Shown: in pieces, positions 5,499 through 33,804 of the stretch
Layout: each line of letters opens with the position of its first letter
Numbering within the stretch: position 1 is the stretch's first letter
Origin: Trypanosoma brucei
Lineage: Eukaryota
Direction: 5' to 3'
Assembly: GCA_000002445.1 (NCBI GenBank)
Contig: CP000071.1
Location: 352,001 to 416,000 of the forward strand
DNA length: 64,000 nucleotides
The notes under the pieces: model-generated
What the model was told of the DNA's origin: nothing
Seen by the model: only the letters and a program-made list of their open reading frames with translations
Databases searched by the model: none
Position numbers and translations under genes: made by a program

Positions 5499-7789
5499 TC
5501 GACTACACAACACGTAAACAAACAAACAAACAATTTCCAATGCTGGTGCTGGTGTTACCGTTTCCTTCCCTTCCCCTTTCTGGCAACGAGCTAGTGAAAT
5601 ATAAGAAGAAAATGAAAATGAAAATGAAAAAATAAATACAAAGGGACGCCAACATATTCACCAAAGTGGCAAATGCATTTCAGAAACAAAATAAAGAAAA
5701 GAGAAGGTGATCAGGAAATGAGGTGCCGCACGGATGGGTTTCCACACTCGTTTACTTGAACTGACCGTGTCATTTGCTTTTTTCTTTCTTTCCTTTTCCC
5801 CTTTCTTGCCTCTGACACCCTTTTTTTAACGGCATTTGCGGGATCATACGCTCCCACACCGTTATTTACGGGTGCGGCGGCAAGTTTCCCCATGCAAACA
5901 TTCATTTAGTCCTTCCGGTCACACATCAAAATACAAAAAGCCATAGCAAAACGCAAACATGCGCAGCACAGTCGCAATTGATACATATTAACGGAAGAAA
6001 AATAAAAAGAAAAAAAAATCGAATTGGGAAGCAGAAACGAAGAAGTATCGACCCTGCAGAATAGACAAAAATTACGAATATAGAAAAAACGAAAAAAACG
6101 AAAACAAGTAAAAAATGAAAGGGAATAGTGAAAAACAAGGTTCAACACGAATTTGAAACATCAGAAACGACACGAAACATATGACTTCAAGACACTGACA
6201 CTTCTATTCCAATTTTTCATGCAGCCCCTCTTCTCCCTTTCCTTGCTCACCTTCATACCCTCGCACATTTGCTTTTATTTATTTATTATTGTTATTTTTC
6301 TCGCTTCTAACCGCTTTATTTATTTATTTCCACTTTCGTTTTCACCTTATTTCGTTTGGGTGCTTGTTTCTTTTTTCTTTTTTTTTTTGATAACTGTCTG
6401 TTTTTTTTCCTTTTCCGAAGTCCAACATCAAATATATTCCACACCGTTACCCCCTTTTCCATCCCCCCGGTTGTCTGCACGTCAGTTGTTAATTCGCATT
6501 TTCTTCACTTGCATCAAATTGATTTAAAAGGCAAACGAAAAAAAAAAAATGACGGCACTCAGCTGCACGCACCTCAACAGCGAATGAAATAAGCGACGAT
6601 GAATATAATAATAGTAGTAATAAACAATATTATTATTACTGTTATATGGCCTTTTATAAATCGTGGAACTACTTTTATGATTAAAACGACGACTAGAAAA
6701 GCAGTAAAATCAATAAAAAGCGGCATTGAAATATCATTGTAGTTGCCACCCAAACACAACGTAACCACTCACGTAATATATTCGAAACCAGTGGAAGGAA
6801 GAAGAAGGGGGAAAAAACAAAGTAAACAAATATCTAATTGAAAAAAGTAGAAAAAGGTGATGCAAATGAAGGAACGATATTGAATATTTGTCATCGGTTA
6901 TTCAAAATATCTCATTTGATCTCTCTTTTTTATATTTTTTTTATATACTGCCTTTCGTGCTTTCAACGTGAGTAATTTAAACAATAAACAAAAAAGTAGA
7001 CGACTCTACCTAACCGTAACCACGCATAAAATCAAATATACATATATTGAAATCTTTGCATCTTATACATTTTTTTCATTAATTTTAACGCACCTTATGT
7101 TTTAAATATAAACAAGACAGATATAACCATTTGCTTCGATCACTTCACATATGATCGAATGGAGCGAGAAGCTAAACATGATGATAAAAAAAAAACAACG
7201 GAAAAAACTAAGTTATAATCATAAAGTTGGAAAATAAAATAATATGGAAGTACAAAAAGATGAGAATAGACCGCTTTTTTTTTTTCAATATACCGTACCT
7301 TATATAAATAAGTTGACATAAATATGTCCTCGATACTTTACTTTGGTATAACACAATATTGCCCATTGCGTTCACCAACTGCCTCCAACGTTGCACCTCC
7401 TCGCTTCACTTTAGTTCCCCTTCACCCCGCCTTTTGCTTCCAACATTGTCAATGCCCTTCATATTTTATTTATTACTTGATCACTCGTTCATCCCTGCGC
7501 GGGTGCTGAAGGAGGGAGTAGGAGACCACAAAAGGGCGAAAAAACAAAAAAATAAGGTAATAGTGTTGGAAAGTACTGATATGATTGTTTCTAACGCAGG
7601 CAATAGCAATCAGTATGCAACTCTGTTTATTAAATGTCGCTCACATCGCAGCTCTTCTTTTCGTTCAGATTTATAAACTTTTGACCGTTTGTCTGTTCCC
7701 TCTACGGCACTGACAAACAGTTCTGTCTTCGCATCCAATTACTCACACCGTAGAGTTGCTGTTTATTTCGTCGTAAGTGATCCCACTGT

Positions 7790-17464: not shown

Positions 17465-20400
17465 TCATCTAATACGTTCCTCGCACCAAGCGCTCATACG
17501 TCTCCATCCTCGCTCCCGAGGATGACTATGCCTCGACCACCAAAACTGGCTAACGCCCCGCATTGTTACATGTTCTCTCACCCTCTGCCATTGTGCCCTC
17601 GCCACCAGGCGCTGTCCAAAACGCATATAACTTCCCACATTATTCGAAGCAGAAGAATGATGCTCAACATCCTCAGCTAACTTCACGGCAATGCGACGCG
17701 CCCCCGGTTCCATGTCCTCCAGTTCAGCACCCTTTTCAAATGAGGGTTCCGACACCGGAATCAGGCGGGAAACAGAAACAAATACAAGTGTCAGCGATGC
17801 AATCAGAATCGATGCAATCCACTGTTCTGCTCTCAACGGTACACACGACATAAACTCTTTTAAGACCTCCACGGCCAAAACCTGAAAACCCACACAACAA
17901 ACCACGATAACCAAAAATGACTTTGAACGAATAAAAAGCCCTTCAAATACATTAACTTCATCATACACTTTGCGGGCATTAAACATATTAAATATGGTAA
18001 AGAAAATAAAAACGTTAAAAACAACAGTTGGAAGTTCCTTCCCCTTCGCCTTTAACCACTTACCACCATATTGGGTTAATAAAAGAACGCTAACAACCTG
18101 AACTACAGTAGCAGTCAGTATTGTCAACCACATTCGACGTGAGACAAGGGGAGCTCGGGGGGAAGACGGACCACGATTTAAGCAATCCTCTGTCGGTTGC
18201 TCCGTTGCGAGAGCGAGGGCCGCAAGTGTGTCCATAAGAAGATTTACCCATAACAGCTGTACAGTCGTTAACGGTGACATATCATGAGCAGACAAAAAAG
18301 AACCAACAAAAACAACAACAATAGAAGCAATATTAATAGAAAGTTGTAACTGCAGGAACTTGCGGATGTTGTCATTCACAGTCCGTCCCCAAACAACGGC
18401 ACGCTGGACAGAACGGAAGTTGTCGTCTAAAAGCACAATATCACCGGACTTCACCGCTATATCCGTGCCACTGCGCATCACAAAACCCACATTTGCAAGA
18501 CGCAGCGCAGGGGCGTCATTTGTCCCATCACCAGTCACAGCAACGACCTCACCACGGAGCATCAGCATCAGTACGAGCAGTTGCTTGTCCAGAGGCTGCG
18601 AACGCCCCATCACCATCATCCGGTCAAGAACAGGCCAGAACTTCTCCATGTTCGCCTCGTCACCATAAGTGTCATACACAAGGTTGCGGAAGTCCTTCCC
18701 AGTGAGCGCAAGATCACCACGCAGTCGATTGTAAATTCCACATTGCCGAGAAATTGCAACGGCTGTGTCGAGATTGTCACCCGTACACATCCTCACTGTC
18801 ACTCCCGCACGCTGGCACATTCGCACAGCATCCACAACCTCTGGACGAAGCGGGTCCTGGATGCCTAATAGTGCAAGCCACACAAATGGTCCCTCGGGTT
18901 CCTCCTCGGGAACCGCACCGTCCGTACCGATACGCCCGTATGCCACGCCGATTGTGCGATTTGCGTCCCCCGCTATTGACCGTATCTGCGCAGTGATCAT
19001 CTCAGTTACCTCCTCCGTCAGCGGCTCCTCACGACCCTCTGACGACAAGTATCGGTTGCACATGCCAAGCACACGATCAGAGCCCCCTTTCACGTACTGC
19101 ATCACAACTCCATCCGCACCTGCAACCACAGCAGTCATAAACTTCCGTTCGCTCGTAAAAGGAAAGATGGCAAAGCCACGGCTGCGGTTTGTCATGCGTA
19201 ACTTCTGGTGTGGAAGCTCCTTGTCATTACAACTACCCGGTACCGATATCAACACGCGATCCACAAAATCCAATATCGCTTGGTCAGTTTTGTTGCCCTT
19301 GTCGGTACGCCACGTCCATCGAGACAGTAAGTCAGACTCAGCTCCCACATTACCTGGTAAAAGCTCCTTCTCACTCGAACTATTCAGTGCAAGACCAAGC
19401 ATTAGTAACGACTGTGCATCACTAGACACACCCTCCAGATTAACCGTGGACGAGGGATCTCCGGGATTCGAGACACGGAACCGCCGCATCCCAATGTAAC
19501 CTTGTACCACAGTCATACGATTCTGAGTCAGCGTCCCAGTTTTATCACTACAAATCTGTGTTGCATTGCCCATTGTCTCACAAGCACACAAACGCCTCAC
19601 CTGATTATTGTCCTTCTGCATCTGGCTCTGTGAGTACGCAAGAGCAATCGTCACCGCCAACGGCAAGCCCTCTGGCACTGCGACGACAACAATCGTCACA
19701 CAAAGTAAAAAAATATCAAGAAACTTTTTTGCGCGTAACTCTTCTTTACCACGAAGAACGAGAAGGATGTAAAACAAAGAAAGCAGAGACATAAGTATCA
19801 CTGCCGCTCCAATTCCTATCCGACCAATAAACCCAGCTAATTCGTCCAATCGCTCCTGCAAGGGAGTCGCCCTCGGTTCACCGTCGAGACGAGATTCCAT
19901 TAGCAGCTTTCCACCAAAAGAAGACTCACCGACGGCGCACGCAAGAATGTAAGCATCCTCAGCCGTACTCACAACAGTCCCAGAAAGTAAGATTGGATGT
20001 TCGGCGCCTTTCTTTTTCAGATCATTCTCGCCAGTCACACTCGACTCATCAACAACAACACTCAAACCACGTACGTATAAACCATCTACAGGGATAACAA
20101 GACCCGGTGACAAGGACACAAGATCACCCACAACAATTTCTGTCACATCCACCGTAACCTTGTGACCATCACGAATGACGGAGATTGGCTGAGCAGAGTT
20201 CTCCTCCACAAGAGCACGGAATTTCAACTCCTTGCGGTAATCCTGAATAGACGATGCTGAGGTTACTGCAATCACGGCCATAAGAATGGCGGTGCCCTCT
20301 ATCCAACCTGTCTTATAGTCAACCTTCTCGTGTCCGGGTTCCGGCACAGTTAACCCGAGGATAAGCGACACACATGCGGCAAGGGTCAAAAGTATGATCA

Positions 20401-20773
20401 TGCGGTCACTCCATGCAGCTTTAAAAATCTTCCAGAATGTCAGCGGAGCCTCCTCAGGAAGCTCATTCCTCCCATACACAGCACGCCGATTCTCTACAGA
20501 AAAAGAGTCGATGCCATCTGTTATACTCGTGCCAAGTCGTTCGGCAATACCCTCAACGCCGCCAAGTTCCTCGTATAGGGGCTTAGCGTCACCGACGCAA
20601 CTGAACAAGGTGTGAAGCTCTCCCTTAATCCCTATGCCGATACGATCTTCGAGCTCCACCTCCACTGCAACGGACCCATCACTTCTGGTAAGGCCAGTGG
20701 ATAAAAACGCTTGCCTCTCTCGACCGCGGCCGGCAAGTGTACCGTAGTTCGAAGTGTCTTTTGGGGAAATCAT
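17465..20773 (-). CDS. Plasma-membrane-type (PMCA-like) Ca2+-transporting P-type ATPase, paralogue A, which has the private C-terminal half
   Basis: P-type ATPase motifs are present: the phosphorylation site ICSDKTGTLTQN, the TGES-region SVTGEN, the hinge VAVTGDGTNDAPAL, and the TM4 motif VPEGLPLAVT. The track start is GTG at 20776, and the ATG is at 20773 (MISPKD...). The last 320 aa, the two patches shown in Finding 1 and the 3' flank all differ from copies B and C. Confidence 0.9.
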   Translation of the reverse strand: MISPKDTSNYGTLAGRGRERQAFLSTGLTRSDGSVAVEVELEDRIGIGIKGELHTLFSCVGDAKPLYEELGGVEGIAERLGTSITDGIDSFSVENRRAVYGRNELPEEAPLTFWKIFKAAWSDRMIILLTLAACVSLILGLTVPEPGHEKVDYKTGWIEGTAILMAVIAVTSASSIQDYRKELKFRALVEENSAQPISVIRDGHKVTVDVTEIVVGDLVSLSPGLVIPVDGLYVRGLSVVVDESSVTGENDLKKKGAEHPILLSGTVVSTAEDAYILACAVGESSFGGKLLMESRLDGEPRATPLQERLDELAGFIGRIGIGAAVILMSLLSLFYILLVLRGKEELRAKKFLDIFLLCVTIVVVAVPEGLPLAVTIALAYSQSQMQKDNNQVRRLCACETMGNATQICSDKTGTLTQNRMTVVQGYIGMRRFRVSNPGDPSSTVNLEGVSSDAQSLLMLGLALNSSSEKELLPGNVGAESDLLSRWTWRTDKGNKTDQAILDFVDRVLISVPGSCNDKELPHQKLRMTNRSRGFAIFPFTSERKFMTAVVAGADGVVMQYVKGGSDRVLGMCNRYLSSEGREEPLTEEVTEMITAQIRSIAGDANRTIGVAYGRIGTDGAVPEEEPEGPFVWLALLGIQDPLRPEVVDAVRMCQRAGVTVRMCTGDNLDTAVAISRQCGIYNRLRGDLALTGKDFRNLVYDTYGDEANMEKFWPVLDRMMVMGRSQPLDKQLLVLMLMLRGEVVAVTGDGTNDAPALRLANVGFVMRSGTDIAVKSGDIVLLDDNFRSVQRAVVWGRTVNDNIRKFLQLQLSINIASIVVVFVGSFLSAHDMSPLTTVQLLWVNLLMDTLAALALATEQPTEDCLNRGPSSPRAPLVSRRMWLTILTATVVQVVSVLLLTQYGGKWLKAKGKELPTVVFNVFIFFTIFNMFNARKVYDEVNVFEGLFIRSKSFLVIVVCCVGFQVLAVEVLKEFMSCVPLRAEQWIASILIASLTLVFVSVSRLIPVSEPSFEKGAELEDMEPGARRIAVKLAEDVEHHSSASNNVGSYMRFGQRLVARAQWQRVREHVTMRGVSQFWWSRHSHPRERGWRRMSAWCEERIR

Positions 20774-20960
20774 CACTCCCTCAAAACTTTCCCTCCCACT
20801 CGGTCACACTTCGCGCAACCAAACGTTACTTTATCCTGTACTCGCTTTGGGCCACTCAACAACAATCCAGAAATATCACCTACCTGTATCGCAAATGACA
20901 CCTAACGTTATTCTCATTATTTTTCAAAATTGCATTTGATATAATTGTTACAAGTCAATG

Positions 20961-20998
20961 AAGGGAAAGAAAGAGACAGGGAAAGGGAGTGACAGAAG
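20961..20998 (-). promoter_or_regulatory. Polypyrimidine tract (on the minus strand) with downstream AG dinucleotides, a candidate trans-splice acceptor region for ATPase paralogue A
   Basis: The plus strand reads aagggaaagaaagagacagggaaagggagtgacagaag, which is a CT-rich tract on the minus strand about 190 nt upstream of the ATG. AG dinucleotides follow. An identical element occurs upstream of paralogue B. Confidence 0.4.
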
Positions 20999-21425
20999 TG
21001 TTCCTAAGTGGTTAATTGAACATGACTTTTGAGTCACGTAAGGAAAGAAAGGTGAACACAAAAGCATCCACTGGTCTTCCCCCTCCCTTTCTACACCTAA
21101 TATTCCCTAATCGGCCTCTTCCGTTAATATTACCTGCGCGTCACCGAAAGTACAGAAGGGTGAAGTGGGGCCCCTTGCACAGACGTATGCGAACTGCCGG
21201 TTCACAGGCACACCATGAAACCATTAACCTTATCCTGTTTCTTACTTCACACAACAATTTCTCTTACGCTTACTTTCAGTCCGGCTGCTTCATCCTCATG
21301 AAGAAGCAGTTATGCACTTCCGCATTACTTGGTAATATTTGGTTGTTGTTATTGCTCCCCTTCGCTTTCATTTATCACCAATGACCACAGGCTGTTCACT
21401 GTAGAGTTGCTTCTCAGGTACATAC

Positions 21426-22421
21426 CTACAGGTCACGTAGGAGTGATGAAATGAGAAGGGTACCATCGCACAGAGCCTCTAGATGCTGAGCCTGTTCCCT
21501 AAGTTGCACCAGTGCCAACATTGTGTCCACTCCACGTGCGGGGGGTACATTGTTTTCATCTCGCTGGTTTCTGGAAGTTTCCCGACTGAGTTTGCCCTCC
21601 AAATCACTTAAGTTTCGCTGTACAGACTCAAGGAGGGCAACCTTGTAATCAGCCATAGAATCAGAGTGATGTACTGTACTGTTGCTTGGCAACGGTGCGA
21701 TATCAATGCCGTTTAGGCAAAAAAGTTGATAAGCATCCACCTCCACCTCCACCTTCACCTCGCGAAGCACACCTTGCTTGGGGACCGAACACGCACGCAG
21801 AAGCCGTGCTTCTTCCTGCATCCCACTCTTCTTGTCAGTCTTTTTGGTTTTTTTGTTCTTTCTGGAAAAGTCGAGAAATGCATCCGTCGGCACGAACGCA
21901 CGAAGGTACAACTTACCCATTAGGCCGGTACGGAAGGGGTCGTAGACAAGAAGCACACTTGGGTGACCGTCAATTGCCAAGTTCGCCAACCGATCAGCTG
22001 TCACAACCGAGTAGGGATCATTCACACAAGCACTGGAAACAATGAAGTAACCTACGCTATAACTGTCTAGGCACTCCTTACGCAGCATCTCCTTTACTTT
22101 CTCGTACATCTTCTGCTGCTGTTTACTCTCGGCCGTGTCATCCCGCTCATCCTCTGCGTCACCAGAAGCTCCCAGGCTGGGAAGAACACTCGTGATGAGA
22201 ATCGTATCCCCTTGTTGAACTCCACAAAGACGTCCGCCGACGGCACTGTGGCACGTGGCATCCTGCGAGAAGCTGCCGAGATGTGTGAGGGCGGGAAATG
22301 ATATGCGAACTTTCTTCGCTGGCGGCAGTTCCACGTGAGAATCACTATCCTTCGCGAATATCGATTCGCCAGTGGGGGCGTCGTCGGAAACGACCTGAAC
22401 CTGCGGAAAACCGTGAAACAT
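21426..22421 (-). CDS. MPN-domain protein resembling eIF3 subunit h (copy 1 of 2 identical copies)
   Basis: The 331-aa product has a verified ATG. The segment HPSVLLVYDPFRTGLMGKLYLRAFVPT matches the conserved eIF3h/MPN block (human [25 protein letters not shown]). There is an upstream MPN-like core (KKVRISFPALTHLGSFS...GGRLCGVQQGDTILITSVLP and SVGYFIVS). No JAMM His/Asp metal site is present, as expected for eIF3h. Confidence 0.55.
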   Translation of the reverse strand: MFHGFPQVQVVSDDAPTGESIFAKDSDSHVELPPAKKVRISFPALTHLGSFSQDATCHSAVGGRLCGVQQGDTILITSVLPSLGASGDAEDERDDTAESKQQQKMYEKVKEMLRKECLDSYSVGYFIVSSACVNDPYSVVTADRLANLAIDGHPSVLLVYDPFRTGLMGKLYLRAFVPTDAFLDFSRKNKKTKKTDKKSGMQEEARLLRACSVPKQGVLREVKVEVEVDAYQLFCLNGIDIAPLPSNSTVHHSDSMADYKVALLESVQRNLSDLEGKLSRETSRNQRDENNVPPARGVDTMLALVQLREQAQHLEALCDGTLLISSLLRDL

Positions 22422-23581
22422 TTTCGAGCAAGCGGCTCAAACGTGAAGCGATGGACCCTATCGGTGCTTATTTTAATACCTTAAAACCTGGAAGCCAATG
22501 AAGCAGTTTGTGTCCACATGGGGCGACGGCAGATAATAGCAACATTGAAATTGACAAGAAGAATAGGATGAAAGGAAATTTGTAACAATGAGCAAGACAG
22601 AAGAGAAGCTGCGGCATGCACAACTACGACGGTGGACCCATACACCAGCACACGAATCTCTGATAAATCTTGATCAATTTATAATACTCCGTAAACATTT
22701 TCCGCTCCCGAAGCTTCCCGGAGGTTTCGATAATGGCATACCTTAACGTGTCCTGTGCCCTTTCCTTCACCCCTCCGGAGGGTAAGAAAATAAAGCATCA
22801 AACACCAACCATCAAACCTAAAAAGAATAGTAAAATGATGACAAGAGGGGGGATAGTGTTAGGACATTTAAGATTTACACAAGAAGATGAAAACGCTGGT
22901 TGCTGTGAACAGAAAAAAAACAGAAAACGTATAAAATGGGACGAGTGAGCGGAAGCTAAAACAGTCGCTACGCAGCCCCTTCAATTTAAAAAGAGGAGTA
23001 CGCAGAAGAATATGTAAGTGCGAAGCCCATTAGGAGCGTATGATACATAACATATTATGTATGCAAAAAGTAAAATAGCGAAAAATAACTTCTTTTCTCC
23101 TAAAAAAGGGAAAAAGAAAGCCAATGAAAAGAGAGAAGAGAAAAATGAACGGTGTCGTACACATTTTTTGTATCATTTTCTTTTTGATATTCTCTGTTGC
23201 CCCTCCTCGATGTCACGCGGAGCAAAGGGCCCACCATTCTTATGCATCCTCAGCCATCCACTCCAGTCCCTCACATCAACTGTCATACCACCGCAAAACA
23301 GGGACGAAACGCTTCAAATAAAAGATCTGAGAAATAACGAAATGGGGGGGGTGGAAATGATGCGGTAGGGCAGCAACGGTGGTGTTACCAAAAAATGACC
23401 GTGTGGAAGGAATCCACGCCAAGCTTCCGCACCGCAATTTATTATTAGAAAGAACGCAAAATAACAATAAAAGAGCTTACGAACGGGACTGGAGAACTCT
23501 TCATCCGATCCAAACAAATCATTTAGGAGGAAAAAGTTATTAAAAGATGAGGGGTAAGGTCAGGGTATAAAAGACAAACAT

Positions 23582-26500
23582 TCATACCATCCTTAATGTG
23601 TCATAAAGTTGTCGGGTGGAGCCCCGTTTCATATCGCGATCCGTCCATGCGCGGCGGAATGCATTAACAACACGAGGTTTCTTCACATGCTCTGCCTGAA
23701 GTCTACGCCACCGCGACTGCGCACGCAACCGACCCGCAAGAAGCGAAGAGGCGTCACTTGTCCCGTCCGTCTCCCGCTGCCTCTGCTCCGCAGCCACCGA
23801 AACATCTTTGATGAGGCGAGAGGCACTACCGTCGACATTTCTACTATCTGGTATCAGTGCAAACACAGGTTCCCTGATGCTCACCACCCGGCTCAAAATA
23901 CCCACAACAAGTGAAATGGCAGCAATACCGATACTTACACCCCATTGCTTGATCGAAAGGGGACGGACACCCATAAAGTCGTTAAAGGTGCAGATGGCCA
24001 ACACTTGAAACGCAATGCACGAACCGACGACAACAATAAAAAATACCGACCGACCCATCCCTTCAAACACATTAAGTTCTCGGTACAATTTGCGACAATT
24101 TAACATGTGGAATATAGTGCCGAAAACAAAAACGTTGAATAGAAATGTTCGGTGCAAATGCTTGCCATTCTCATCCTCCCCAAAATACTTTCCACCAAAC
24201 GTGAGCACAGAAAAGAAAGCAGTTAGCTGAACTGTGGCAACGGAAAAAATTGTGAACCACATTCGACGTGAGACAAGGGGAGCTCGGGGGGAAGACGGAC
24301 CACGATTTAAGCAATCCTCTGTCGGTTGCTCCGTTGCGAGAGCAGGGGCCGCAAGTGTGTCCATAAGAAGATTTACCCATAACAGCTGTACAGTCGTTAA
24401 CGGTGAAGACTTACCCTCCCTCACGAGGGTACCTACGACGGTTAATGAAAAACACACCAAATTCACCGTGAACTGTAACTGCAGGAACTTGCGGATGTTG
24501 TCATTCACAGTCCGCCCCCAAACAACGGCACGCTGGACGGAACGGAAGTTGTCGTCTAAAAGCACAATATCACCGGACTTCACCGCTATATCCGTGCCAC
24601 TGCGCATCACAAAACCCACATTTGCAAGACGCAGCGCAGGGGCGTCATTTGTCCCATCACCAGTCACAGCAACGACCTCACCACGGAGCATCAGCATCAG
24701 TACGAGCAGTTGCTTGTCCAGAGGCTGCGAACGCCCCATCACCATCATCCGGTCAAGAACAGGCCAGAACTTCTCCATGTTCGCCTCGTCACCATAAGTG
24801 TCATACACAAGGTTGCGGAAGTCCTTCCCAGTGAGCGCAAGATCACCACGCAGTCGATTGTAAATTCCACATTGCCGAGAAATTGCAACGGCTGTGTCGA
24901 GATTGTCACCCGTACACATCCTCACTGTCACTCCCGCACGCTGGCACATTCGCACAGCATCCACAACCTCTGGACGAAGCGGGTCCTGGATGCCTAATAG
25001 TGCAAGCCACACAAATGGTCCCTCGGGTTCCTCCTCGGGAACCGCACCGTCCGTACCGATACGCCCGTATGCCACGCCGATTGTGCGATTTGCGTCCCCC
25101 GCTATTGACCGTATCTGCTCAGTGATCATCTCAGTTACCTCCTCCGTCAGCGGCTCCTCACGACCCTCTGACGACAAGTATCGGTTGCACATGCCAAGCA
25201 CACGATCAGAGCCCCCTTTCACGTACTGCATCACAACTCCATCCGCACCTGCAACCACAGCAGTCATAAACTTCCGTTCGCTCGTAAAAGGAAAGATGGC
25301 AAAGCCACGGCTGCAGTTTGTCATGCGTAACTTCTGGTGTGGAAGCTCCTTGTCATTACAACTACCCGGTACCGATATCAACACGCGATCCACAAAATCC
25401 AATATCGCTTGGTCAGTTTTGTTGCCCTTGTCGGTACGCCACGTCCATCGAGACAGTAAGTCAGACTCAGCTCCCACATTACCTGGTAAAAGCTCCTTCT
25501 CACTCGAACTATTCAGTGCAAGACCAAGCATTAGTAACGACTGTGCATCACTAGACACACCCTCCAGATTAACCGTGGACGAGGGATCTCCGGGATTCGA
25601 GACACGGAACCGCCGCATCCCAATGTAACCTTGTACCACAGTCATACGATTCTGAGTCAGCGTCCCAGTTTTATCACTGCAAATCTGTGTTGCATTGCCC
25701 ATTGTCTCACAAGCACACAAACGCCTCACCTGATTATTGTCCTTCTGCATCTGGCTCTGTGAGTACGCAAGAGCAATCGTCACCACCAATGGCAAGCCCT
25801 CTGGCACTGCAATAACAACAATCGTCACACAAAGTAGGAGAAAGTTCAGGAACTTCTTCGGGTAAAATTGTTGTTTGTTTGTAGCAATTCGCTCAATTTC
25901 GATGATACAAAGTACTATGAAAAAAAGAACGGCGGATATAATTGCAACTCGAGCGATGAAGCTAACTAAGTTTTGCGACCGCTCCTGCAAGGGAGTCGCC
26001 CTCGGTTCACCGTCGAGACGAGATTCCATTAGCAGCTTTCCACCAAAAGAAGACTCACCGACGGCGCACGCAAGAATGTAAGCATCCTCAGCCGTACTCA
26101 CAACAGTCCCAGAAAGTAAGATTGGATGTTCGGCGCCTTTCTTTTTCAGATCATTCTCGCCAGTCACACTCGACTCATCAACAACAACACTCAAACCACG
26201 TACGTATAAACCATCTACAGGGATAACAAGACCCGGTGACAAGGACACAAGATCACCCACAACAATTTCTGTCACATCCACCGTAACCTTGTGACCATCA
26301 CGAATGACGGAGATTGGCTGAGCAGAGTTCTCCTCCACAAGAGCACGGAATTTCAACTCCTTGCGGTAATCCTGAATAGACGATGCTGAGGTTACTGCAA
26401 TCACGGCCATAAGAATGGCGGTGCCCTCTATCCAACCTGTCTTATAGTCAACCTTCTCGTGTCCGGGTTCCGGCACAGTTAACCCGAGGATAAGCGACAC

Positions 26501-26902
26501 ACATGCGGCAAGGGTCAAAAGTATGATCATGCGGTCACTCCATGCAGTTTTAAAAATCTTCCAGAATGTCAGCGGAGCCTCCTCAGGAAGCTCATTCCTC
26601 CCATACACAGCACGCCGATTCTCTACAGAAAAAGAGTCGATGCCATCTGTTATACTCGTGCCAAGTCGTTCGGCAATACCCTCAACGCCGCCAAGTTCCT
26701 CGTATAGGGGCTTAGCGTCACCGACGCAACTGAACAAGGTGTGAAGCTCTCCCTTAATCCCTATGCCGATACGATCTTCGAGCTCCACCTCCACTGCAAC
26801 GGACCCATCACTTCTGGTAAGGCCAGTGGATAAAAACGCTTGCTTCTCTCGACCGCGGCCGGCAAGTGTACCGTAGTTCGAAGTGTCTTTTGGGGAAATC
26901 AT
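23582..26902 (-). CDS. PMCA-like Ca2+-transporting P-type ATPase, paralogue B
   Basis: Same motifs as paralogue A. Its N-terminus is identical to A and its C-terminal half is identical to C. It has private substitutions: KIFKTAW, LAAPALATEQ and RMTNCSRGF. The ATG is at 26902 after a GTG. Confidence 0.9.
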   Translation of the reverse strand: MISPKDTSNYGTLAGRGREKQAFLSTGLTRSDGSVAVEVELEDRIGIGIKGELHTLFSCVGDAKPLYEELGGVEGIAERLGTSITDGIDSFSVENRRAVYGRNELPEEAPLTFWKIFKTAWSDRMIILLTLAACVSLILGLTVPEPGHEKVDYKTGWIEGTAILMAVIAVTSASSIQDYRKELKFRALVEENSAQPISVIRDGHKVTVDVTEIVVGDLVSLSPGLVIPVDGLYVRGLSVVVDESSVTGENDLKKKGAEHPILLSGTVVSTAEDAYILACAVGESSFGGKLLMESRLDGEPRATPLQERSQNLVSFIARVAIISAVLFFIVLCIIEIERIATNKQQFYPKKFLNFLLLCVTIVVIAVPEGLPLVVTIALAYSQSQMQKDNNQVRRLCACETMGNATQICSDKTGTLTQNRMTVVQGYIGMRRFRVSNPGDPSSTVNLEGVSSDAQSLLMLGLALNSSSEKELLPGNVGAESDLLSRWTWRTDKGNKTDQAILDFVDRVLISVPGSCNDKELPHQKLRMTNCSRGFAIFPFTSERKFMTAVVAGADGVVMQYVKGGSDRVLGMCNRYLSSEGREEPLTEEVTEMITEQIRSIAGDANRTIGVAYGRIGTDGAVPEEEPEGPFVWLALLGIQDPLRPEVVDAVRMCQRAGVTVRMCTGDNLDTAVAISRQCGIYNRLRGDLALTGKDFRNLVYDTYGDEANMEKFWPVLDRMMVMGRSQPLDKQLLVLMLMLRGEVVAVTGDGTNDAPALRLANVGFVMRSGTDIAVKSGDIVLLDDNFRSVQRAVVWGRTVNDNIRKFLQLQFTVNLVCFSLTVVGTLVREGKSSPLTTVQLLWVNLLMDTLAAPALATEQPTEDCLNRGPSSPRAPLVSRRMWFTIFSVATVQLTAFFSVLTFGGKYFGEDENGKHLHRTFLFNVFVFGTIFHMLNCRKLYRELNVFEGMGRSVFFIVVVGSCIAFQVLAICTFNDFMGVRPLSIKQWGVSIGIAAISLVVGILSRVVSIREPVFALIPDSRNVDGSASRLIKDVSVAAEQRQRETDGTSDASSLLAGRLRAQSRWRRLQAEHVKKPRVVNAFRRAWTDRDMKRGSTRQLYDTLRMV

Positions 26903-27089
26903 CACTCCCTCAAAACTTTCCCTCCCACTCGGTCACACTTCGCGCAACCAAACGTTACTTTATCCTGTACTCGCTTTGGGCCACTCAACAACAATCCAGA
27001 AATATCACCTACCTGTATCGCAAATGACACCTAACGTTATTCTCATTATTTTTCAAAACTGCATTTGATATAATTGTTACAAGTCAATG

Positions 27090-27127
27090 AAGGGAAAGAA
27101 AGAGACAGGGAAAGGGAGTGACAGAAG
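27090..27127 (-). promoter_or_regulatory. Polypyrimidine tract and AG acceptor candidate upstream of ATPase paralogue B
   Basis: Identical sequence to 20961..20998, a consequence of the tandem duplication. Confidence 0.4.
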
Positions 27128-27554
27128 TGTTCCTAAGTGGTTAATTGAACATGACTTTTGAGTCACGTAAGGAAAGAAAGGTGAACACAAAAGCATCCAC
27201 TGGTCTTCCCCCTCCCTTTCTACACCTAATATTCCCTAATCGGCCTCTTCCGTTAATATTACCTGCGCGTCACCGAAAGTACAGAAGGGTGAAGTGGGGC
27301 CCCTTGCACAGACGTATGCGAACTGCCGGTTCACAGGCACACCATGAAACCATTAACCTTATCCTGTTTCTTACTTCACACAACAATTTCTCTTACGCTT
27401 ACTTTCAGTCCGGCTGCTTCATCCTCATGAAGAAGCAGTTATGCACTTCCGCATTACTTGGTAATATTTGGTTGTTGTTATTGCTCCCCTTCGCTTTCAT
27501 TTATCACCAATGACCACAGGCTGTTCACTGTAGAGTTGCTTCTCAGGTACATAC

Positions 27555-28550
27555 CTACAGGTCACGTAGGAGTGATGAAATGAGAAGGGTACCATCGCAC
27601 AGAGCCTCTAGATGCTGAGCCTGTTCCCTAAGTTGCACCAGTGCCAACATTGTGTCCACTCCACGTGCGGGGGGTACATTGTTTTCATCTCGCTGGTTTC
27701 TGGAAGTTTCCCGACTGAGTTTGCCCTCCAAATCACTTAAGTTTCGCTGTACAGACTCAAGGAGGGCAACCTTGTAATCAGCCATAGAATCAGAGTGATG
27801 TACTGTACTGTTGCTTGGCAACGGTGCGATATCAATGCCGTTTAGGCAAAAAAGTTGATAAGCATCCACCTCCACCTCCACCTTCACCTCGCGAAGCACA
27901 CCTTGCTTGGGGACCGAACACGCACGCAGAAGCCGTGCTTCTTCCTGCATCCCACTCTTCTTGTCAGTCTTTTTGGTTTTTTTGTTCTTTCTGGAAAAGT
28001 CGAGAAATGCATCCGTCGGCACGAACGCACGAAGGTACAACTTACCCATTAGGCCGGTACGGAAGGGGTCGTAGACAAGAAGCACACTTGGGTGACCGTC
28101 AATTGCCAAGTTCGCCAACCGATCAGCTGTCACAACCGAGTAGGGATCATTCACACAAGCACTGGAAACAATGAAGTAACCTACGCTATAACTGTCTAGG
28201 CACTCCTTACGCAGCATCTCCTTTACTTTCTCGTACATCTTCTGCTGCTGTTTACTCTCGGCCGTGTCATCCCGCTCATCCTCTGCGTCACCAGAAGCTC
28301 CCAGGCTGGGAAGAACACTCGTGATGAGAATCGTATCCCCTTGTTGAACTCCACAAAGACGTCCGCCGACGGCACTGTGGCACGTGGCATCCTGCGAGAA
28401 GCTGCCGAGATGTGTGAGGGCGGGAAATGATATGCGAACTTTCTTCGCTGGCGGCAGTTCCACGTGAGAATCACTATCCTTCGCGAATATCGATTCGCCA
28501 GTGGGGGCGTCGTCGGAAACGACCTGAACCTGCGGAAAACCGTGAAACAT
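27555..28550 (-). CDS. MPN-domain protein resembling eIF3 subunit h (copy 2, identical to copy 1)
   Basis: The translation is identical to that of 21426..22421. Confidence 0.55.
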   Translation of the reverse strand: MFHGFPQVQVVSDDAPTGESIFAKDSDSHVELPPAKKVRISFPALTHLGSFSQDATCHSAVGGRLCGVQQGDTILITSVLPSLGASGDAEDERDDTAESKQQQKMYEKVKEMLRKECLDSYSVGYFIVSSACVNDPYSVVTADRLANLAIDGHPSVLLVYDPFRTGLMGKLYLRAFVPTDAFLDFSRKNKKTKKTDKKSGMQEEARLLRACSVPKQGVLREVKVEVEVDAYQLFCLNGIDIAPLPSNSTVHHSDSMADYKVALLESVQRNLSDLEGKLSRETSRNQRDENNVPPARGVDTMLALVQLREQAQHLEALCDGTLLISSLLRDL

Positions 28551-29715
28551 TTTCGAGCAAGCGGCTCAAACGTGAAGCGATGGACCCTATCGGTGCTTCT
28601 CTCAACATACGCACCTAAAACCCGGAAGCCAATGAAGCAGTTTGTGTCCACATGGGGCGACGGCAGATAATAGCAACATTGAAATTGACAAGAAGAATAG
28701 GATGAAAGGAAATTTGTAACAATGAGCAAGACAGAAGAGAAGCTGCGGCATGCACAACTACGACGGTGGACCCATACACCAGCACACGAATCTCTGATAA
28801 ATCTTGATCAATTTATCATACTCCGTAAACATTTTCCGCTCCCGAAGCTTCCCGGAGGTTTCGATAATGGCATACCTTAACGTGTCCTGTGCCCTTTCCT
28901 TCACCCCTCCGGAGGGTAAGAAAATAAAGCATCAAACACCAACCATCAAACCTAAAAAGAATAGTAAAATGATGACAAGAGGGGGGATAGTGTTAGGACA
29001 TTTAAGATTTACACAAGAAGATGAAAACGCTGGTTGCTGTGAACAGAAAAAAAACAGAAAACGTATAAAATGGGACGAGTGAGCGGAAGCTAAAACAGTC
29101 GCTACGCAGCCCCTTCAATTTAAAAAGAGGAGTACGCAGAAGAATATGTAAGTGCGAAGCCCATTAGGAGCGTATGATACATAACATATTATGTATGCAA
29201 AAAGTAAAATAGCGAAAAATAACTTCTTTTCTCCTAAAAAAGGGAAAAAGAAAGCCAATGAAAAGAGAGAAGAGAAAAATGAACGGTGTCGTACACATTT
29301 TTTGTATCATTTTCTTTTTGATATTCTCTGTTGCCCCTCCTCGATGTCACGCGGAGCAAAGGGCCCACCATTCTTATGCATCCTCAGCCATCCACTCCAG
29401 TCCCTCACATCAACTGTCATACCACCGCAAAACAGGGACGAAACGCTTCAAATAAAAGATCTGAGAAATAACGAAATGGGGGGGGTGGAAATGATGCGGT
29501 AGGGCAGCAACGGTGGTGTTACCAAAAAATGACCGTGTGGAAGGAATCCACGCCAAGCTTCCGCACCGCAATTTATTATTAGAAAGAACGCAAAATAACA
29601 ATAAAAGAGCTTACGAACGGGACTGGAGAACTCTTCATCCGATCCAAACAAATCATTTAGGAGGAAAAAGTTATTAAAAGATGAGGGGTAAGGTCAGGGT
29701 ATAAAAGACAAACAT

Positions 29716-32700
29716 TCATACCATCCTTAATGTGTCATAAAGTTGTCGGGTGGAGCCCCGTTTCATATCGCGATCCGTCCATGCGCGGCGGAATGCATTA
29801 ACAACACGAGGTTTCTTCACATGCTCTGCCTGAAGTCTACGCCACCGCGACTGCGCACGCAACCGACCCGCAAGAAGCGAAGAGGCGTCACTTGTCCCGT
29901 CCGTCTCCCGCTGCCTCTGCTCCGCAGCCACCGAAACATCTTTGATGAGGCGAGAGGCACTACCGTCGACATTTCTACTATCTGGTATCAGTGCAAACAC
30001 AGGTTCCCTGATGCTCACCACCCGGCTCAAAATACCCACAACAAGTGAAATGGCAGCAATACCGATACTTACACCCCATTGCTTGATCGAAAGGGGACGG
30101 ACACCCATAAAGTCGTTAAAGGTGCAGATGGCCAACACTTGAAACGCAATGCACGAACCGACGACAACAATAAAAAATACCGACCGACCCATCCCTTCAA
30201 ACACATTAAGTTCTCGGTACAATTTGCGACAATTTAACATGTGGAATATAGTGCCGAAAACAAAAACGTTGAATAGAAATGTTCGGTGCAAATGCTTGCC
30301 ATTCTCATCCTCCCCAAAATACTTTCCACCAAACGTGAGCACAGAAAAGAAAGCAGTTAGCTGAACTGTGGCAACGGAAAAAATTGTGAACCACATTCGA
30401 CGTGAGACAAGGGGAGCTCGGGGGGAAGACGGACCACGATTTAAGCAATCCTCTGTCGGTTGCTCCGTTGCGAGAGCGAGCGCCGCAAGTGTGTCCATAA
30501 GAAGATTTACCCATAACAGCTGTACAGTCGTTAACGGTGAAGACTTACCCTCCCTCACGAGGGTACCTACAACAGTTACTAGAAAAGAAACAACGTTCAC
30601 GGTTAATTGCAGCTGCAGGAACTTGCGGATGTTGTCATTCACAGTCCGCCCCCAAACAACGGCACGCTGGACAGAACGGAAGTTGTCGTCTAAAAGCACA
30701 ATATCACCGGACTTCACCGCTATATCCGTGCCACTGCGCATCACAAAACCCACATTTGCAAGACGCAGCGCAGGGGCGTCATTTGTCCCATCACCAGTCA
30801 CAGCAACGACCTCACCACGGAGCATCAGCATCAGTACGAGCAGTTGCTTGTCCAGAGGCTGCGAACGCCCCATCACCATCATCCGGTCAAGAACAGGCCA
30901 GAACTTCTCCATGTTCGCCTCGTCACCATAAGTGTCATACACAAGGTTGCGGAAGTCCTTCCCAGTGAGCGCAAGATCACCACGCAGTCGATTGTAAATT
31001 CCACATTGCCGAGAAATTGCAACGGCTGTGTCGAGATTGTCACCCGTACACATCCTCACTGTCACTCCCGCACGCTGGCACATTCGCACAGCATCCACAA
31101 CCTCTGGACGAAGCGGGTCCTGGATGCCTAATAGTGCAAGCCACACAAATGGTCCCTCGGGTTCCTCCTCGGGAACCGCACCGTCCGTACCGATACGCCC
31201 GTATGCCACGCCGATTGTGCGATTTGCGTCCCCCGCTATTGACCGTATCTGCTCAGTGATCATCTCAGTTACCTCCTCCGTCAGCGGCTCCTCACGACCC
31301 TCTGACGACAAGTATCGGTTGCACATGCCAAGCACACGATCAGAGCCCCCTTTCACGTACTGCATCACAACTCCATCCGCACCTGCAACCACAGCAGTCA
31401 TAAACTTCCGTTCGCTCGTAAAAGGAAAGATGGCAAAGCCACGGCTGCGGTTTGTCATGCGTAACTTCTGGTGTGGAAGCTCCTTGTCATTACAACTACC
31501 CGGTACCGATATCAACACGCGATCCACAAAATCCAATATCGCTTGGTCAGTTTTGTTGCCCTTGTCGGTACGCCACGTCCATCGAGACAGTAAGTCAGAC
31601 TCAGCTCCCACATTACCTGGTAAAAGCTCCTTCTCACTCGAACTATTCAGTGCAAGACCAAGCATTAGTAACGACTGTGCATCACTAGACACACCCTCCA
31701 GATTAACCGTGGACGAGGGATCTCCGGGATTCGAGACACGGAACCGCCGCATCCCAATGTAACCTTGTACCACAGTCATACGATTCTGAGTCAGCGTCCC
31801 AGTTTTATCACTGCAAATCTGTGTTGCATTGCCCATTGTCTCACAAGCACACAAACGCCTCACCTGATTATTGTCCTTCTGCATCTGGTTCTGTGAGTAC
31901 GCAAGAGCAATCGTCACCGCCAACGGCAAGCCCTCTGGCACTGCGACGACAACAATCGTCACACAAAGTAGGAGAAAGTTCAGGAACTTCTTCGGGTAAA
32001 ATTGTTGTTTGTTTGTAGCAATTCGCTCAATTTCGATGATACAAAGTACTATGAAAAGCAGAACGGCGGATATAATTGCAACTCGACCAATAAAAGCGGC
32101 CAGCTCATCCAACCGCTCCTGCAAGGGAGTCGCCCTCGGTTCACCGTCGAGACGAGATTCCATTAGCAGCTTTCCACCAAAAGAAGACTCACCGACGGCG
32201 CACGCAAGAATGTAAGCATCCTCAGCCGTACTCACAACAGTCCCAGAAAGTAAGATTGGATGTTCGGCGCCTTTCTTTTTCAGATCATTCTCGCCAGTCA
32301 CACTCGACTCATCAACAACAACACTCAAACCACGTACGTATAAACCATCTACAGGGATAACAAGACCCGGTGACAAGGACACAAGATCACCCACAACAAT
32401 TTCTGTCACATCCACCGTAACCTTGTGACCATCACGAATGACGGAGATTGGCTGAGCAGAGTTCTCCTCCACAAGAGCACGGAATTTCAACTCCTTGCGG
32501 TAATCCTGAATAGACGATGCTGAGGTTACTGCAATCACGGCCATAAGAATGGCGGTGCCCTCTATCCAACCTGTCTTATAGTCAACCTTCTCGTGTCCGG
32601 GTTCCGGCACAGTTAACCCGAGGATAAGCGACACACATGCGGCAAGGGTCAAAAGTATGATCATGCGGTCACTCCATGCAGCTTTTAAAATCTTCCAGAA

Positions 32701-32958
32701 TGTCAGCGGAGCCTCCTCAGGAAGCTCATTCCTCCCATACACAGCACGCCGATTCTCTACAGAAAAAGAGTCGATGCCATCTGTTATACTCGTGCCAAGT
32801 CGTTCGGCAATACCCTCAACGCCGCCAAGTTCCTCGTATAGGGGCTTTGGATCTTCATTGCAAGTAAATAACTTTTGCAGGACGCTTTTTGTTTCATTGC
32901 CATTGTTCTCCGGTGATACTTGTGTCTTATGTTCCTGCGGTGACTCAAGTGGATGCAT
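29716..32958 (-). CDS. PMCA-like Ca2+-transporting P-type ATPase, paralogue C, which has the private N-terminus
   Basis: The ATG was verified at 32956-32958. The first 38 aa (MHPLESPQEHKTQVSPENNGNETKSVLQKLFTCNEDP) and the 5' flank are unrelated to A and B. The nucleotide breakpoint is at about 32847. The rest of the gene is near-identical to B, with A-like patches such as LDELAAFIGR. Confidence 0.9.
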   Translation of the reverse strand: MHPLESPQEHKTQVSPENNGNETKSVLQKLFTCNEDPKPLYEELGGVEGIAERLGTSITDGIDSFSVENRRAVYGRNELPEEAPLTFWKILKAAWSDRMIILLTLAACVSLILGLTVPEPGHEKVDYKTGWIEGTAILMAVIAVTSASSIQDYRKELKFRALVEENSAQPISVIRDGHKVTVDVTEIVVGDLVSLSPGLVIPVDGLYVRGLSVVVDESSVTGENDLKKKGAEHPILLSGTVVSTAEDAYILACAVGESSFGGKLLMESRLDGEPRATPLQERLDELAAFIGRVAIISAVLLFIVLCIIEIERIATNKQQFYPKKFLNFLLLCVTIVVVAVPEGLPLAVTIALAYSQNQMQKDNNQVRRLCACETMGNATQICSDKTGTLTQNRMTVVQGYIGMRRFRVSNPGDPSSTVNLEGVSSDAQSLLMLGLALNSSSEKELLPGNVGAESDLLSRWTWRTDKGNKTDQAILDFVDRVLISVPGSCNDKELPHQKLRMTNRSRGFAIFPFTSERKFMTAVVAGADGVVMQYVKGGSDRVLGMCNRYLSSEGREEPLTEEVTEMITEQIRSIAGDANRTIGVAYGRIGTDGAVPEEEPEGPFVWLALLGIQDPLRPEVVDAVRMCQRAGVTVRMCTGDNLDTAVAISRQCGIYNRLRGDLALTGKDFRNLVYDTYGDEANMEKFWPVLDRMMVMGRSQPLDKQLLVLMLMLRGEVVAVTGDGTNDAPALRLANVGFVMRSGTDIAVKSGDIVLLDDNFRSVQRAVVWGRTVNDNIRKFLQLQLTVNVVSFLVTVVGTLVREGKSSPLTTVQLLWVNLLMDTLAALALATEQPTEDCLNRGPSSPRAPLVSRRMWFTIFSVATVQLTAFFSVLTFGGKYFGEDENGKHLHRTFLFNVFVFGTIFHMLNCRKLYRELNVFEGMGRSVFFIVVVGSCIAFQVLAICTFNDFMGVRPLSIKQWGVSIGIAAISLVVGILSRVVSIREPVFALIPDSRNVDGSASRLIKDVSVAAEQRQRETDGTSDASSLLAGRLRAQSRWRRLQAEHVKKPRVVNAFRRAWTDRDMKRGSTRQLYDTLRMV

Positions 32959-33804
32959 GTCTTTCCTAGTTTGATAGTATGCGAACTGATCTGTATATCT
33001 TTATGAAAATACTTCAGATATTTCTGAGACCCTTCCTTTTCGTAATGTCTTTGCTGAATTTAATCTCTCTGAAGTGATTTCGTCGATTTTTTTGTAATTT
33101 TTTTTTCGAGAATCGTGTTTGCCGCTTTTGTTTCCTTTTTTCTTTTTTTTTTTTGTGCAAAGTTCTCTGTTGCTTTACAACAAGTGAATGGCACCACGCG
33201 CCCACTGCTCTGAATGTGTATATTTAGATGCTGCTTCGTATGTGCTGTATAGACGGAAGCTACAAATATGCGGTCTAGTGGCCACGTAATACAAAAAATT
33301 TAGATAGAAGCAACTAAATCAACAAAAAGAGACCAGTGGAGTCAAATATTAACTGGAGGATTCGCAAGCGATCCGTTCCTCTCGGCTCCGCCAACCCTCC
33401 TGCTTTTTGTTTTCTTTCTCCCTTCTTTCGTCTCCGGGCTTCCTATCTTTAAGGTTTCTTTGACCTTTTCGGGTGTACTCTTTCCCTCAATCTTGGAGTT
33501 TAACCGAAAAACAGAATGAATAAAAGGAGTGTAAACCAATAAGTGGAAAAGGCGGGCAACGAAAGGTGAACAAGGGGAGACATAAAGGGAGACGATGTAG
33601 CGCGTCAGGCAAGTAGATAGAAGTGCCACCTGAAAAAACTTATGAATGTAAAAGCAAAGTGCGCACAACCAGGATATCCATAGTAACAGGAACGATATTG
33701 TTAATCCAGTAAAGAGCAGGGCTTCAATAAATATATGCAGACGCACAATAAAAACAGGTTAAACACTTTCCCAACGGGGATGACTTCAACACTTCACAAT
33801 CCAC

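Follow-up and report, generated by a model that had tools for sequence, protein, structure and literature searches.

Three Ca2+-ATPase genes lie in tandem on chromosome 8 of Trypanosoma brucei TREU927, within a window of 64,000 nucleotides (contig CP000071.1, positions 352,001 to 416,000 of the forward strand) that was analysed here as a whole. In parts of their length the three copies are practically identical and in other parts they cannot be aligned at all. This raises the question whether the copies acquired new ends within this array or whether they preserve the traces of an older history of exchange between paralogues. According to our analysis the array very probably goes back to an ancient pair of pump genes, the middle of which was homogenised by gene conversion and the ends of which stayed distinct. 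A crossover between the members of this pair would then have made the hybrid pump TbPMC1, and its N-terminus is likely to sort it to the acidocalcisome.

Composition of the array

Three long open reading frames (ORFs) were present on the minus strand of the window at 17465..20776, 23582..26905 and 29716..32958, here named copies A, B and C (all coordinates are those of the window). The locus extends from Tb927.8.1160 to Tb927.8.1200 in the order C (TbPMC2), eIF3h, B (TbPMC1), eIF3h, A. Copy C (29716..32958, minus strand) corresponds to Tb927.8.1200 or TbPMC2 with 1080 aa, copy B (23582..26902, minus strand) to Tb927.8.1180 or TbPMC1 with 1106 aa, and copy A (17465..20773, minus strand) to Tb927.8.1160 or TB4b with 1102 aa as annotated. 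The proteins of A, B and C match the TREU927 entries XP_846953, XP_846955 and XP_846957 at every residue. The entry of Tb927.8.1180 is annotated as 'Ca2+-ATPase 1' and that of Tb927.8.1200 as 'Ca2+-ATPase 2'. The same three genes with 1080, 1106 and 1102 aa are annotated in Lister 427.

The pump ORFs are separated by two ORFs on the minus strand which encode mutually identical proteins of 331 aa, namely Tb927.8.1170 (copy 1, 21426..22421) and Tb927.8.1190 (copy 2, 27555..28550). Both were named eIF3 subunit h (eIF3h) previously (PMC4320536), and the JAB/MPN domain match of this small gene was weak. It is carried along as a passenger gene of the repeat unit.

In published work Tb927.8.1180 is TbPMC1, a pump of the acidocalcisome, and the pump of 1080 aa is TbPMC2, which is located in the plasma membrane. 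No characterisation of the 1102-aa TB4b was found there. TbPMC1 is reported to be needed for growth of bloodstream and procyclic forms (PMC4263762), and TbPMC1 as well as TbPMC2 have been reported to complement yeast mutants of the vacuolar Ca2+ pump.

Block structure of the three copies

The block borders were taken from a three-way MAFFT alignment of which all variable columns were listed, and transmembrane (TM) segments were placed by hydropathy. Synonymous divergence (dS) was calculated according to Nei and Gojobori. Comparison of the window with itself by BLAST revealed a repeat unit of 6129 bp, with 19851..26713 matching 25980..32847 at 99.2%. The body of A could be aligned with B and C as far down as 18120.

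Upstream of position 32848 (equivalent to B 26714 and A 20585) copy C could not be aligned with A and B. The N-terminus that is private to each side of this comparison is 37 aa long in C, compared with 63 aa in the other two copies. Together with the 5' flank, codons 1-37 of C form a block of 32848..33804 with 27-45% identity to A and B and no alignment, here referred to as type 2. The corresponding type 1 block of A, consisting of codons 1-63 including SNYGTL and the spacer between eIF3h and the ATPase, spans 20585..21425. Its counterpart in B (codons 1-63 and spacer, 26714..27554) is 99-100% identical to it. These blocks, as all that follow, are orientated on the minus strand.

Downstream of this border the first part of a homogenised core was found (A 19851..20584, B 25980..26713, C 32114..32847), in which all pairwise dS values were 0. 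It is followed by a patch at TM3 and the adjoining loop (A 19708..19850, B 25837..25979, C 31971..32113), where A is saturated in dS against B and C. Within the first 30 nt of this patch all three copies differ from each other, and B encodes SQNLVSFIAR there. The second part of the core carries TM4 and the P and N domains (A 18350..19707, B 24479..25836, C 30613..31970) and had a dS of 0.006-0.019. A patch at TM5 (A 18278..18349, B 24407..24478, C 30541..30612) is private in A, and B and C differ here as well with a dS of 0.73.

Next to it lies an island at TM6 (A 18126..18277, B 24255..24406, C 30389..30540), encoding SPLTTVQLLWVNLLMDTLAALALATEQ...LVSRRMW, where A has two differences to B and one to C. 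Beyond the island, A carries a private type 1 block with TM7-TM10 and the cytosolic tail (17465..18125), and its divergence runs on through the 3' flank to approximately 16565. In C, the type 2 block that comprises TM7-TM10, the tail and the 3' flank (28551..30388) is 100% identical to B 22422..24254 and contains WRRLQAEHVKKPRVVNAF.

The differences between the copies were strongly clustered. Their variance-to-mean ratio per 50-nt bin was 17, compared with approximately 0.85 expected, and the longest identical run between A and C reached 603 nt, whereas the simulated runs did not exceed 101 nt (0 of 10,000 permutations). In the core dS amounted to 0-0.02. It was above 1 in the N-terminus, and for A versus C values above 1 or saturation were also obtained in both patches (TM3 and TM5) and in TM7-10 with the tail. 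Breakpoints could be resolved to within a few nucleotides. The copies are therefore confirmed as real block mosaics. Purifying selection was considered as the sole cause of the identity of the core and was rejected, since synonymous sites are identical as well.

The initial annotation of the window had already described sharp breakpoints and a block mosaic, which the alignment and the permutations bear out, and its private patch at TM3/4 (given as A 19707..19855) was recovered with almost the same borders. Several of its details have to be modified. The break in C at about 32847 is exact, and the private N-terminus behind it is one residue shorter than the 38 aa given. Copy A is indeed private at its 3' end and in the 3' flank; instead of most of the last 320 codons, this concerns a 24-codon patch and 220 private codons with a 51-codon island between them. 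The island itself had been placed at A 18120..18279 and regarded as identical to B 24276..24409. It is near-identical, with the borders and the two differences given above, and the match in B is 24255..24406. An A-like LDELA segment in C, proposed as a recombinant piece, is a likeness at the protein level only: C and A differ synonymously, B is the odd copy, and no recombination junction is present.

Two pump types in trypanosomatids

A comparison with orthologous loci had been suggested in the initial annotation and was carried out with copy A as query. The orthologues obtained split into two types. Type 1 pumps have a long N-terminus, always with the motif (S/T/I)YG(T/S), and a tail like that of copy A. 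Type 2 pumps have a short N-terminus without the YG(T/S) motif and a tail like that of B and C. In T. brucei, copy A is thus a complete type 1 plasma-membrane Ca2+-ATPase (PMCA) with the long N-terminus, YGT and the type 1 tail, and copy C is a complete type 2 PMCA with the short N-terminus and the type 2 TM7-10 and tail.

The same cassette was found in T. vivax, T. melophagium, Leishmania donovani and further Leishmaniinae; in the three named species the fetched loci had the gene order type 2, eIF3h, type 1. In T. cruzi only eIF3h and the type 1 gene were kept in three assemblies. Bodo saltans carried one pump of this group with an eIF3h orthologue immediately after it (E = 1.3e-28), so that the linkage of pump and eIF3h is older than the trypanosomatids and the downstream type 1 copy was added later.

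In T. vivax, L. donovani and T. melophagium the core showed approximately 100% nucleotide identity within the species and both ends were diverged. T. melophagium additionally has a divergent patch at the position of the TM3 patch of T. brucei. On a common alignment of seven species (T. brucei, T. congolense, T. vivax, T. melophagium, L. donovani, Leptomonas and Porcisia) the 3' junction of the core was located at residues 885/886 of copy A (LVSRRMWxTI|, the start of TM7) in all of them. The 5' junction maps to residues 47-62 of copy A.

Bootstrapped neighbour-joining trees of the individual blocks gave opposite groupings. In the core tree, within-species clades reached 100% bootstrap in five species; in the tail tree they reached only 0-3%. 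There the tail of A grouped with the T. congolense type 1 pump (P0003) at 96%, Trypanosoma type 1 tails at 82%, Leishmaniinae type 1 at 98% and Leishmaniinae type 2 at 96%. The tail of B and C joined the type 2 tails of T. vivax, T. congolense and T. rangeli, and never that of A (0%). The N-terminus of A was likewise orthologous to that of the T. congolense type 1 pump (z = 11.3). Trees of the N-terminus and of the TM3 patch were discarded as too short and too noisy.

Core trees that follow the species and tail trees that follow the type, together with a core dS close to 0 and saturated private blocks, support gene conversion and unequal crossing-over, as proposed initially, and not simple divergence. 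The proposal of the initial annotation that the N-terminus and 5' flank of C are new, and a reading of the private ends as specific to this array, are not supported. The short N-terminus and the B/C tail belong to the old type 2, with the same gene order around eIF3h in other species, and the long N-terminus and the tail of A to the old type 1.

Two observations speak against a single duplication before the split of the genera. The N-terminus of C had no significant similarity to other type 2 N-termini (z below 1), so that only its position and shortness are conserved. In the tail tree the types were not united across Trypanosoma and Leishmaniinae (1-3%), and Trypanosoma formed a single clade at 61%. 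Independent duplications, or conversion of the tails in the stem lineages, are possible as well. It is thus synteny and the N-terminal motif that speak for a single duplication, and on these the orthology of the tail types across genera is probable.

In the converted core the G+C content at third codon positions (GC3) was higher than in the private ends, with 0.78 versus 0.44-0.53 in T. vivax and 0.68 versus 0.44-0.61 in T. melophagium. The effect was marginal in T. brucei and L. donovani. This pattern is compatible with GC-biased gene conversion and suggestive only.

The type 2 copy of T. melophagium (3894-7187 of locus L007) was called as two ORFs, and an in-frame stop and a disturbance of the frame are found exactly in its TM5 patch. 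This upstream pump is either a pseudogene or the result of an assembly error.

Copy B as a chimera

Copy B combines both types. It equals A over the spacer between eIF3h and the ATPase (840 nt of 5' flank) and the 63-aa N-terminus, and it equals C over the TM3 patch, most of the TM5 patch, TM7-10, the tail and the whole 3' flank. The two segments that contain eIF3h differ at only 14 alignment columns in approximately 2.8 kb. This composition and the duplication of a near-identical eIF3h segment are the expected product of unequal crossing-over in an identical core.

Twelve of the 14 differences are packed into about 20 nt (22470..22489 versus 28599..28623), located 50-70 nt 5' of the eIF3h start codons. 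They consist mainly of T/C changes and a 5-nt indel.

The same three forms were present in T. congolense: a type 2 pump (P0131), a type 1 pump (P0003) and a pump that is type 1 at the N-terminus and type 2 throughout the rest (P0130). The DNA evidence from this species covers the segment eIF3h-chimera-eIF3h. On this contig (L011) the chimera has eIF3h on both flanks and the contig ends are 98.2% identical to one another, which places the chimera as the middle gene in T. congolense too. The crossover is thus probably older than the split of T. brucei and T. congolense, and the chimera probably arose once before it.

A simple history with one old crossover is opposed by three findings. First, copy B contains dense private patches which match neither A nor C and whose donor is unexplained. 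These are a micro-patch with SQNLVSFIA in place of the conserved LDELA(G/A)FIG (25953..25977, minus strand) and further clusters on the same strand at 25785..25814 (flanking PEGLP, TM4), 24437..24473 (TM5) and 24344..24345 (TM6, L to P), with a dS to C of 0.23-0.73. The B-private residues (SQNLVSFIAR, VVIAV..LVV and AAPALATEQ) were also found in the independent clones Q8I920 and Q7Z1N8, and the patches are therefore regarded as real. Second, the crossover interval lies at aa 64-308 in T. brucei and at aa 53-108 in T. congolense, and an overlap is obtained only if one C-private site is ignored. Third, T. b. equiperdum IVM-t1 showed only C, eIF3h and A. This may reflect a polymorphic copy number or a collapsed assembly.

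The strongest of the alternatives accepts the same mechanism and proposes recent and separate origins of the middle chimera in the two species T. brucei and T. congolense. An unequal crossover within a 100% identical core is expected to recur, and the flanks of B are 99-100% identical to A or C; the differing crossover intervals and the missing B of IVM-t1 would fit as well. However, the architecture is the same in both species: the hybrid joins a type 1 N-terminus to a type 2 body and occupies the middle slot between two eIF3h genes. Moreover, the dS of the B-private patches indicates a higher age than the flanks suggest. Ongoing conversion would in any case erase the age signal of the flanks. 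We therefore consider two independent origins as rather unlikely and prefer a single chimera that predates both species.

Strain-specific mosaics were also seen in T. equiperdum OVI (P0125) and in the deposit Q8I919. Here, collapse of the assembly or chimerism of polymerase chain reaction (PCR) products or clones may be responsible.

N-terminus and localisation

TbPMC1 and TbPMC2 serve as the reference Ca2+ pumps of the acidocalcisome and the plasma membrane, respectively, and by the block map TbPMC1 is a type 1 N-terminus grafted on the body of TbPMC2. In the genome, B and C differ at 19 scattered residues after aa 70 and are otherwise shared from codon 64 of B and codon 38 of C on. The deposits Q8I920 (TbPMC1) and Q8I919 (TbPMC2) differ by only two residues after aa 70. 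The N-terminus is thus the only substantial candidate for differential sorting. The initial annotation had named the private termini and untranslated regions (UTRs) as candidates for targeting. With regard to the N-terminus and the 5' flank this can be maintained. The private tail of A cannot explain how B and C differ in localisation, as these share the C-terminal half and the 3' flank.

All type 1 N-termini carried the YGT motif, and it was absent from those of type 2. In salivarian species it reads YGTL, YGTI or YGTF and resembles a YxxPhi signal. Since B and C differ in essence only at this end, the type 1 N-terminus with YGT(L/I/F) is likely to be the determinant for sorting to the acidocalcisome. 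In the other, non-salivarian species the motif (YGSC, YGTC, YGTY and YGTS) does not conform to YxxPhi, which is an argument against this interpretation of it. The type 1 pump Tca1 of T. cruzi has been reported in acidocalcisomes and in the plasma membrane. Tb927.8.1160 was detected in the acidocalcisome proteome with a score of 0.99 and 9 peptides. Separate TrypTag localisations for the three pump genes were not found in the supplementary data searched.

Alternatively, localisation could be determined outside the N-terminus, either by the B-private substitutions in TM3-TM6 or by effects of the expression level or the UTRs. The 19 differences between B and C in the genome cluster in TM3, TM4, TM5 and TM6, and the 5' flanks of B and C are wholly different. 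On the other hand, the deposited TbPMC1 and TbPMC2 were reported at different locations in spite of their two differences after aa 70, and the N-terminal type with the YGT motif is conserved across the family. A cause outside the N-terminus is for these reasons unlikely in our opinion.

With sorting by the N-terminus, the determinant would be narrowed down to approximately 63 residues and the conserved YGT motif, which is directly testable. Copy A should then be acidocalcisomal as well, with a different membrane support domain, a variant spacing in its putative calmodulin-binding segment and a different 3'UTR. For Tb927.8.1160, the third pump, this predicts the role of the ancestral acidocalcisome-type pump.

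The deposit Q8I919 consists of the N-terminus of C on a B-like body, including SQNLVSFIAR and AAPALATEQ. In addition, both deposits share an aberrant stretch VKGDG...SGHGYSGEVRC which is not in the genome. This suggests composite clones or a shared sequence.

Recent triplication and assembly artefacts

According to another explanation, the pump was triplicated recently in T. brucei, after which the N-terminus and 5' flank of C and the C-terminal half of A were newly acquired. The near-complete identity of the core across all three copies and the lack of similarity between the N-terminus of C and those of other type 2 pumps would be in agreement with this. It is contradicted by the orthology of the tail and the N-terminus of A to T. 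congolense type 1, by the grouping of the B/C tail with type 2 tails of other species, by the saturated dS of the private blocks and by the synteny of the two-type cassette in T. vivax, T. melophagium and L. donovani. Accordingly, a recent triplication is very improbable.

Older and short-read assemblies do collapse this locus. In T. b. gambiense DAL972 a single fused gene without eIF3h was present (C9ZUN6, 1077 aa; FN554971.1, 10001-13234 of locus L001), which is C-like up to the equivalent of A 19550 and A-like from the equivalent of A 18990 on. A 5' end of C joined to a 3' end of A is the form expected of the reciprocal deletion product, but the missing eIF3h suggests collapse of the assembly rather than a real allele. 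The older assembly of T. vivax Y486 showed a fused gene with a type 2 N-terminus and a type 1 tail (P0133), and a newer and more contiguous assembly has two genes. The contig of T. equiperdum OVI begins inside the array. The 'single PMCA' reported in publications for T. b. gambiense is therefore probably a chimera of a collapsed assembly, and likewise that of the older T. vivax Y486. That the mosaics of TREU927 as well are artefacts of collapsed or mis-joined repeats is largely refuted and has hardly any probability left, given the B-specific residues in the independently cloned Q8I920 and Q7Z1N8, the three genes annotated in Lister 427 and the same block architecture in five other species or assemblies.

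Proposed history of the locus

Starting from the block map, the contrast in age between the blocks, the conserved junctions and the chimeric make-up of B, all of which the sequences show, the following history can be proposed. The ancestral trypanosomatid cassette would have consisted of a type 2 pump, eIF3h and a type 1 pump. Recurrent conversion between the tandem copies would then have kept the central ~820 codons near-identical within each species. This core begins shortly ahead of the Cation_ATPase_N domain and ends where TM7 starts. Both N-termini, TM7-TM10 with the cytosolic tail and the flanking UTR regions would have remained unconverted since before the Trypanosoma species diverged. 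The junctions are inherited. They could be self-maintaining, as the heteroduplex would stop where the sequences have diverged, and may in addition be reinforced by selection that favours distinct ends.

In T. brucei, patchy conversion would have left old type-specific segments at TM3 and TM5 with the converted TM6 island in between. Finally, a type 1 gene and a type 2 gene would have undergone unequal crossing-over in the core, yielding copy B and the second eIF3h. As far as the sequences tell, the locus is a case of core-restricted concerted evolution of an ancient pair of paralogues and its features are not novelties private to this array.

A more far-reaching interpretation is possible, and we put it forward tentatively and with some doubt. 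The locus might work as a modular system, with a catalytic core locked by conversion and with a sorting N-terminus and a regulatory TM7-10 and tail protected from exchange. Its junctions would have been fixed since the trypanosomatid ancestor, and crossovers in the core would shuffle the ends. At least one product of this, TbPMC1 and its counterpart in T. congolense, would have been retained as an acidocalcisome pump.

Conserved motifs and further features of the window

All five Pfam families (Cation_ATPase_N, E1-E2_ATPase, Cation_ATPase, Hydrolase and Cation_ATPase_C) were above the cut-off in A, B and C. The catalytic and ion-site motifs CSDKTGTLTQN, MCTGDNLDTA, TGDGTNDAPAL, VPEGLPL (with PEGLP of TM4) and WVNLLMDT (with N..D of TM6) were present in the three translations. 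The closest PDB entries were human PMCA1 (6A69; E = 6.6e-178), PMCA2 and plant ACA8 (8QMP), with SERCA reaching only ~1e-81. By sequence the pumps belong to subfamily P2B (PMCA-type) and are nearer to PMCA than to SERCA, SPCA or Na,K-ATPase.

The type 2 and chimeric pumps of T. congolense (P0131 and P0130) carry ISCDKTGM or ISCDMTGM for ICSDKTGT, TGDD for TGDN and IIMKDGSLSS for IILLDDNFRS. The type 1 copy of this species has canonical motifs. The altered motifs may indicate functional divergence or decay.

In the tail of B and C (WRRLQAEHVKKPRVVNAF) a W..F pair with 1-18 spacing was found, the same motif form as the calmodulin-binding motif described for the pump of T. equiperdum (PMC7040492). 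The tail of A (WQRVREHVTMRGVSQF) has a W..F spacing of 1-16, and an amphipathic segment is present in both tail types. These segments are putative calmodulin-binding helices, with that of A as a spacing variant.

At approximately 17507/17508, 7 nt that are present in T. b. gambiense are missing from copy A, corresponding to one unit of the repeat GAGCGAG GAGCGAG. The deletion site (17500..17515, minus strand) leads to a frame shift of the last ~15 codons, so that the protein ends with ...RERGWRRMSAWCEERIR before its stop. The conserved ending ...ARMETYERLVRGTY can be read in an alternative frame of copy A, with its stop at 17469..17471. The frameshifted end is shared by T. equiperdum OVI (P0125), and the end is intact in DAL972, T. 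b. equiperdum IVM-t1 (P0121) and T. congolense, which looks like a real polymorphism.

The gene upstream of C (ORF 33805..35865, minus strand) encodes a coiled-coil protein. At 34107..35105 it carries a tandem repeat of 129 nt (43 aa) in 7.7 copies with 99% identity. The gambiense orthologue has 557 aa compared with 686 aa here, which implies fewer repeats. The G+C content of the window was low (0.36-0.39) at 6001..8000 and 58001..62000 compared with ~0.5 over the rest.

Comparison with known systems

Neither the genes and their array nor the general mechanism are new. Tandem arrays under concerted evolution were described for T. brucei by Jackson 2007 (BMC Evol Biol 7:54; PMC1855330), and its supplement lists the present locus as array 65 with a two-gene unit of 996 and 3243 nt. 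In agreement with our findings, these arrays consist of head-to-tail paralogues in one polycistron, parts of an array give conflicting phylogenies, and homogenisation and differentiation coexist where structural heterogeneity separates the duplicates. The block map, the two ancient pump types, the junctions across genera and the chimerism of TbPMC1 were not found in its main text or in the passages found in its supplement. Equally, the literature searched gave no description of the block map or of a conserved pair of pump types whose junctions are fixed, and none in which TbPMC1 is recognised as the product of a crossover. The locus represents a clean case of core-restricted concerted evolution in which the junctions are conserved across genera.

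In the T. brucei PGK A/B/C tandem array, with cytosolic PGKB and glycosomal PGKC, the near-identical cores are attributed to gene conversion and a private terminus sets the compartment. There the targeting element is a C-terminal extension, whereas the candidate in the pumps is the N-terminus. Unlike the PGK array, the pump unit contains eIF3h as a passenger gene and one pump copy is a crossover chimera.

The hybrid itself can be compared with the Lepore and anti-Lepore fusion genes of human globin and opsin arrays, which come from unequal crossing-over. In both cases the hybrid takes its 5' part from one paralogue and its 3' part from the second, with duplication of the segment in between. 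In contrast to these, the pump hybrid is fixed and functional and apparently conserved in a second species.

Among P-type ATPases, the L. donovani H+-ATPases LDH1A/LDH1B and the T. cruzi pumps TcHA1/TcHA2 are tandem isoforms with differential expression or localisation, and their differences are concentrated at the ends (PMC6884021) as in the present array. These pumps differ from ours in belonging to subfamily P3A and in having no intervening gene, and their conversion junctions are not known to be conserved across genera.

Finally, human PMCA1 (6A69) and plant ACA8 (8QMP) share with the trypanosome pumps the domain architecture, the catalytic motifs and a calmodulin-binding helix in the tail, which is putative here. 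In vertebrates the termini of PMCA are diversified by alternative splicing, whereas in trypanosomes this role falls to tandem genes whose identical cores are kept by conversion. If the modular interpretation is true, the array would do at the level of the genome what alternative splicing does for the termini of vertebrate PMCA.

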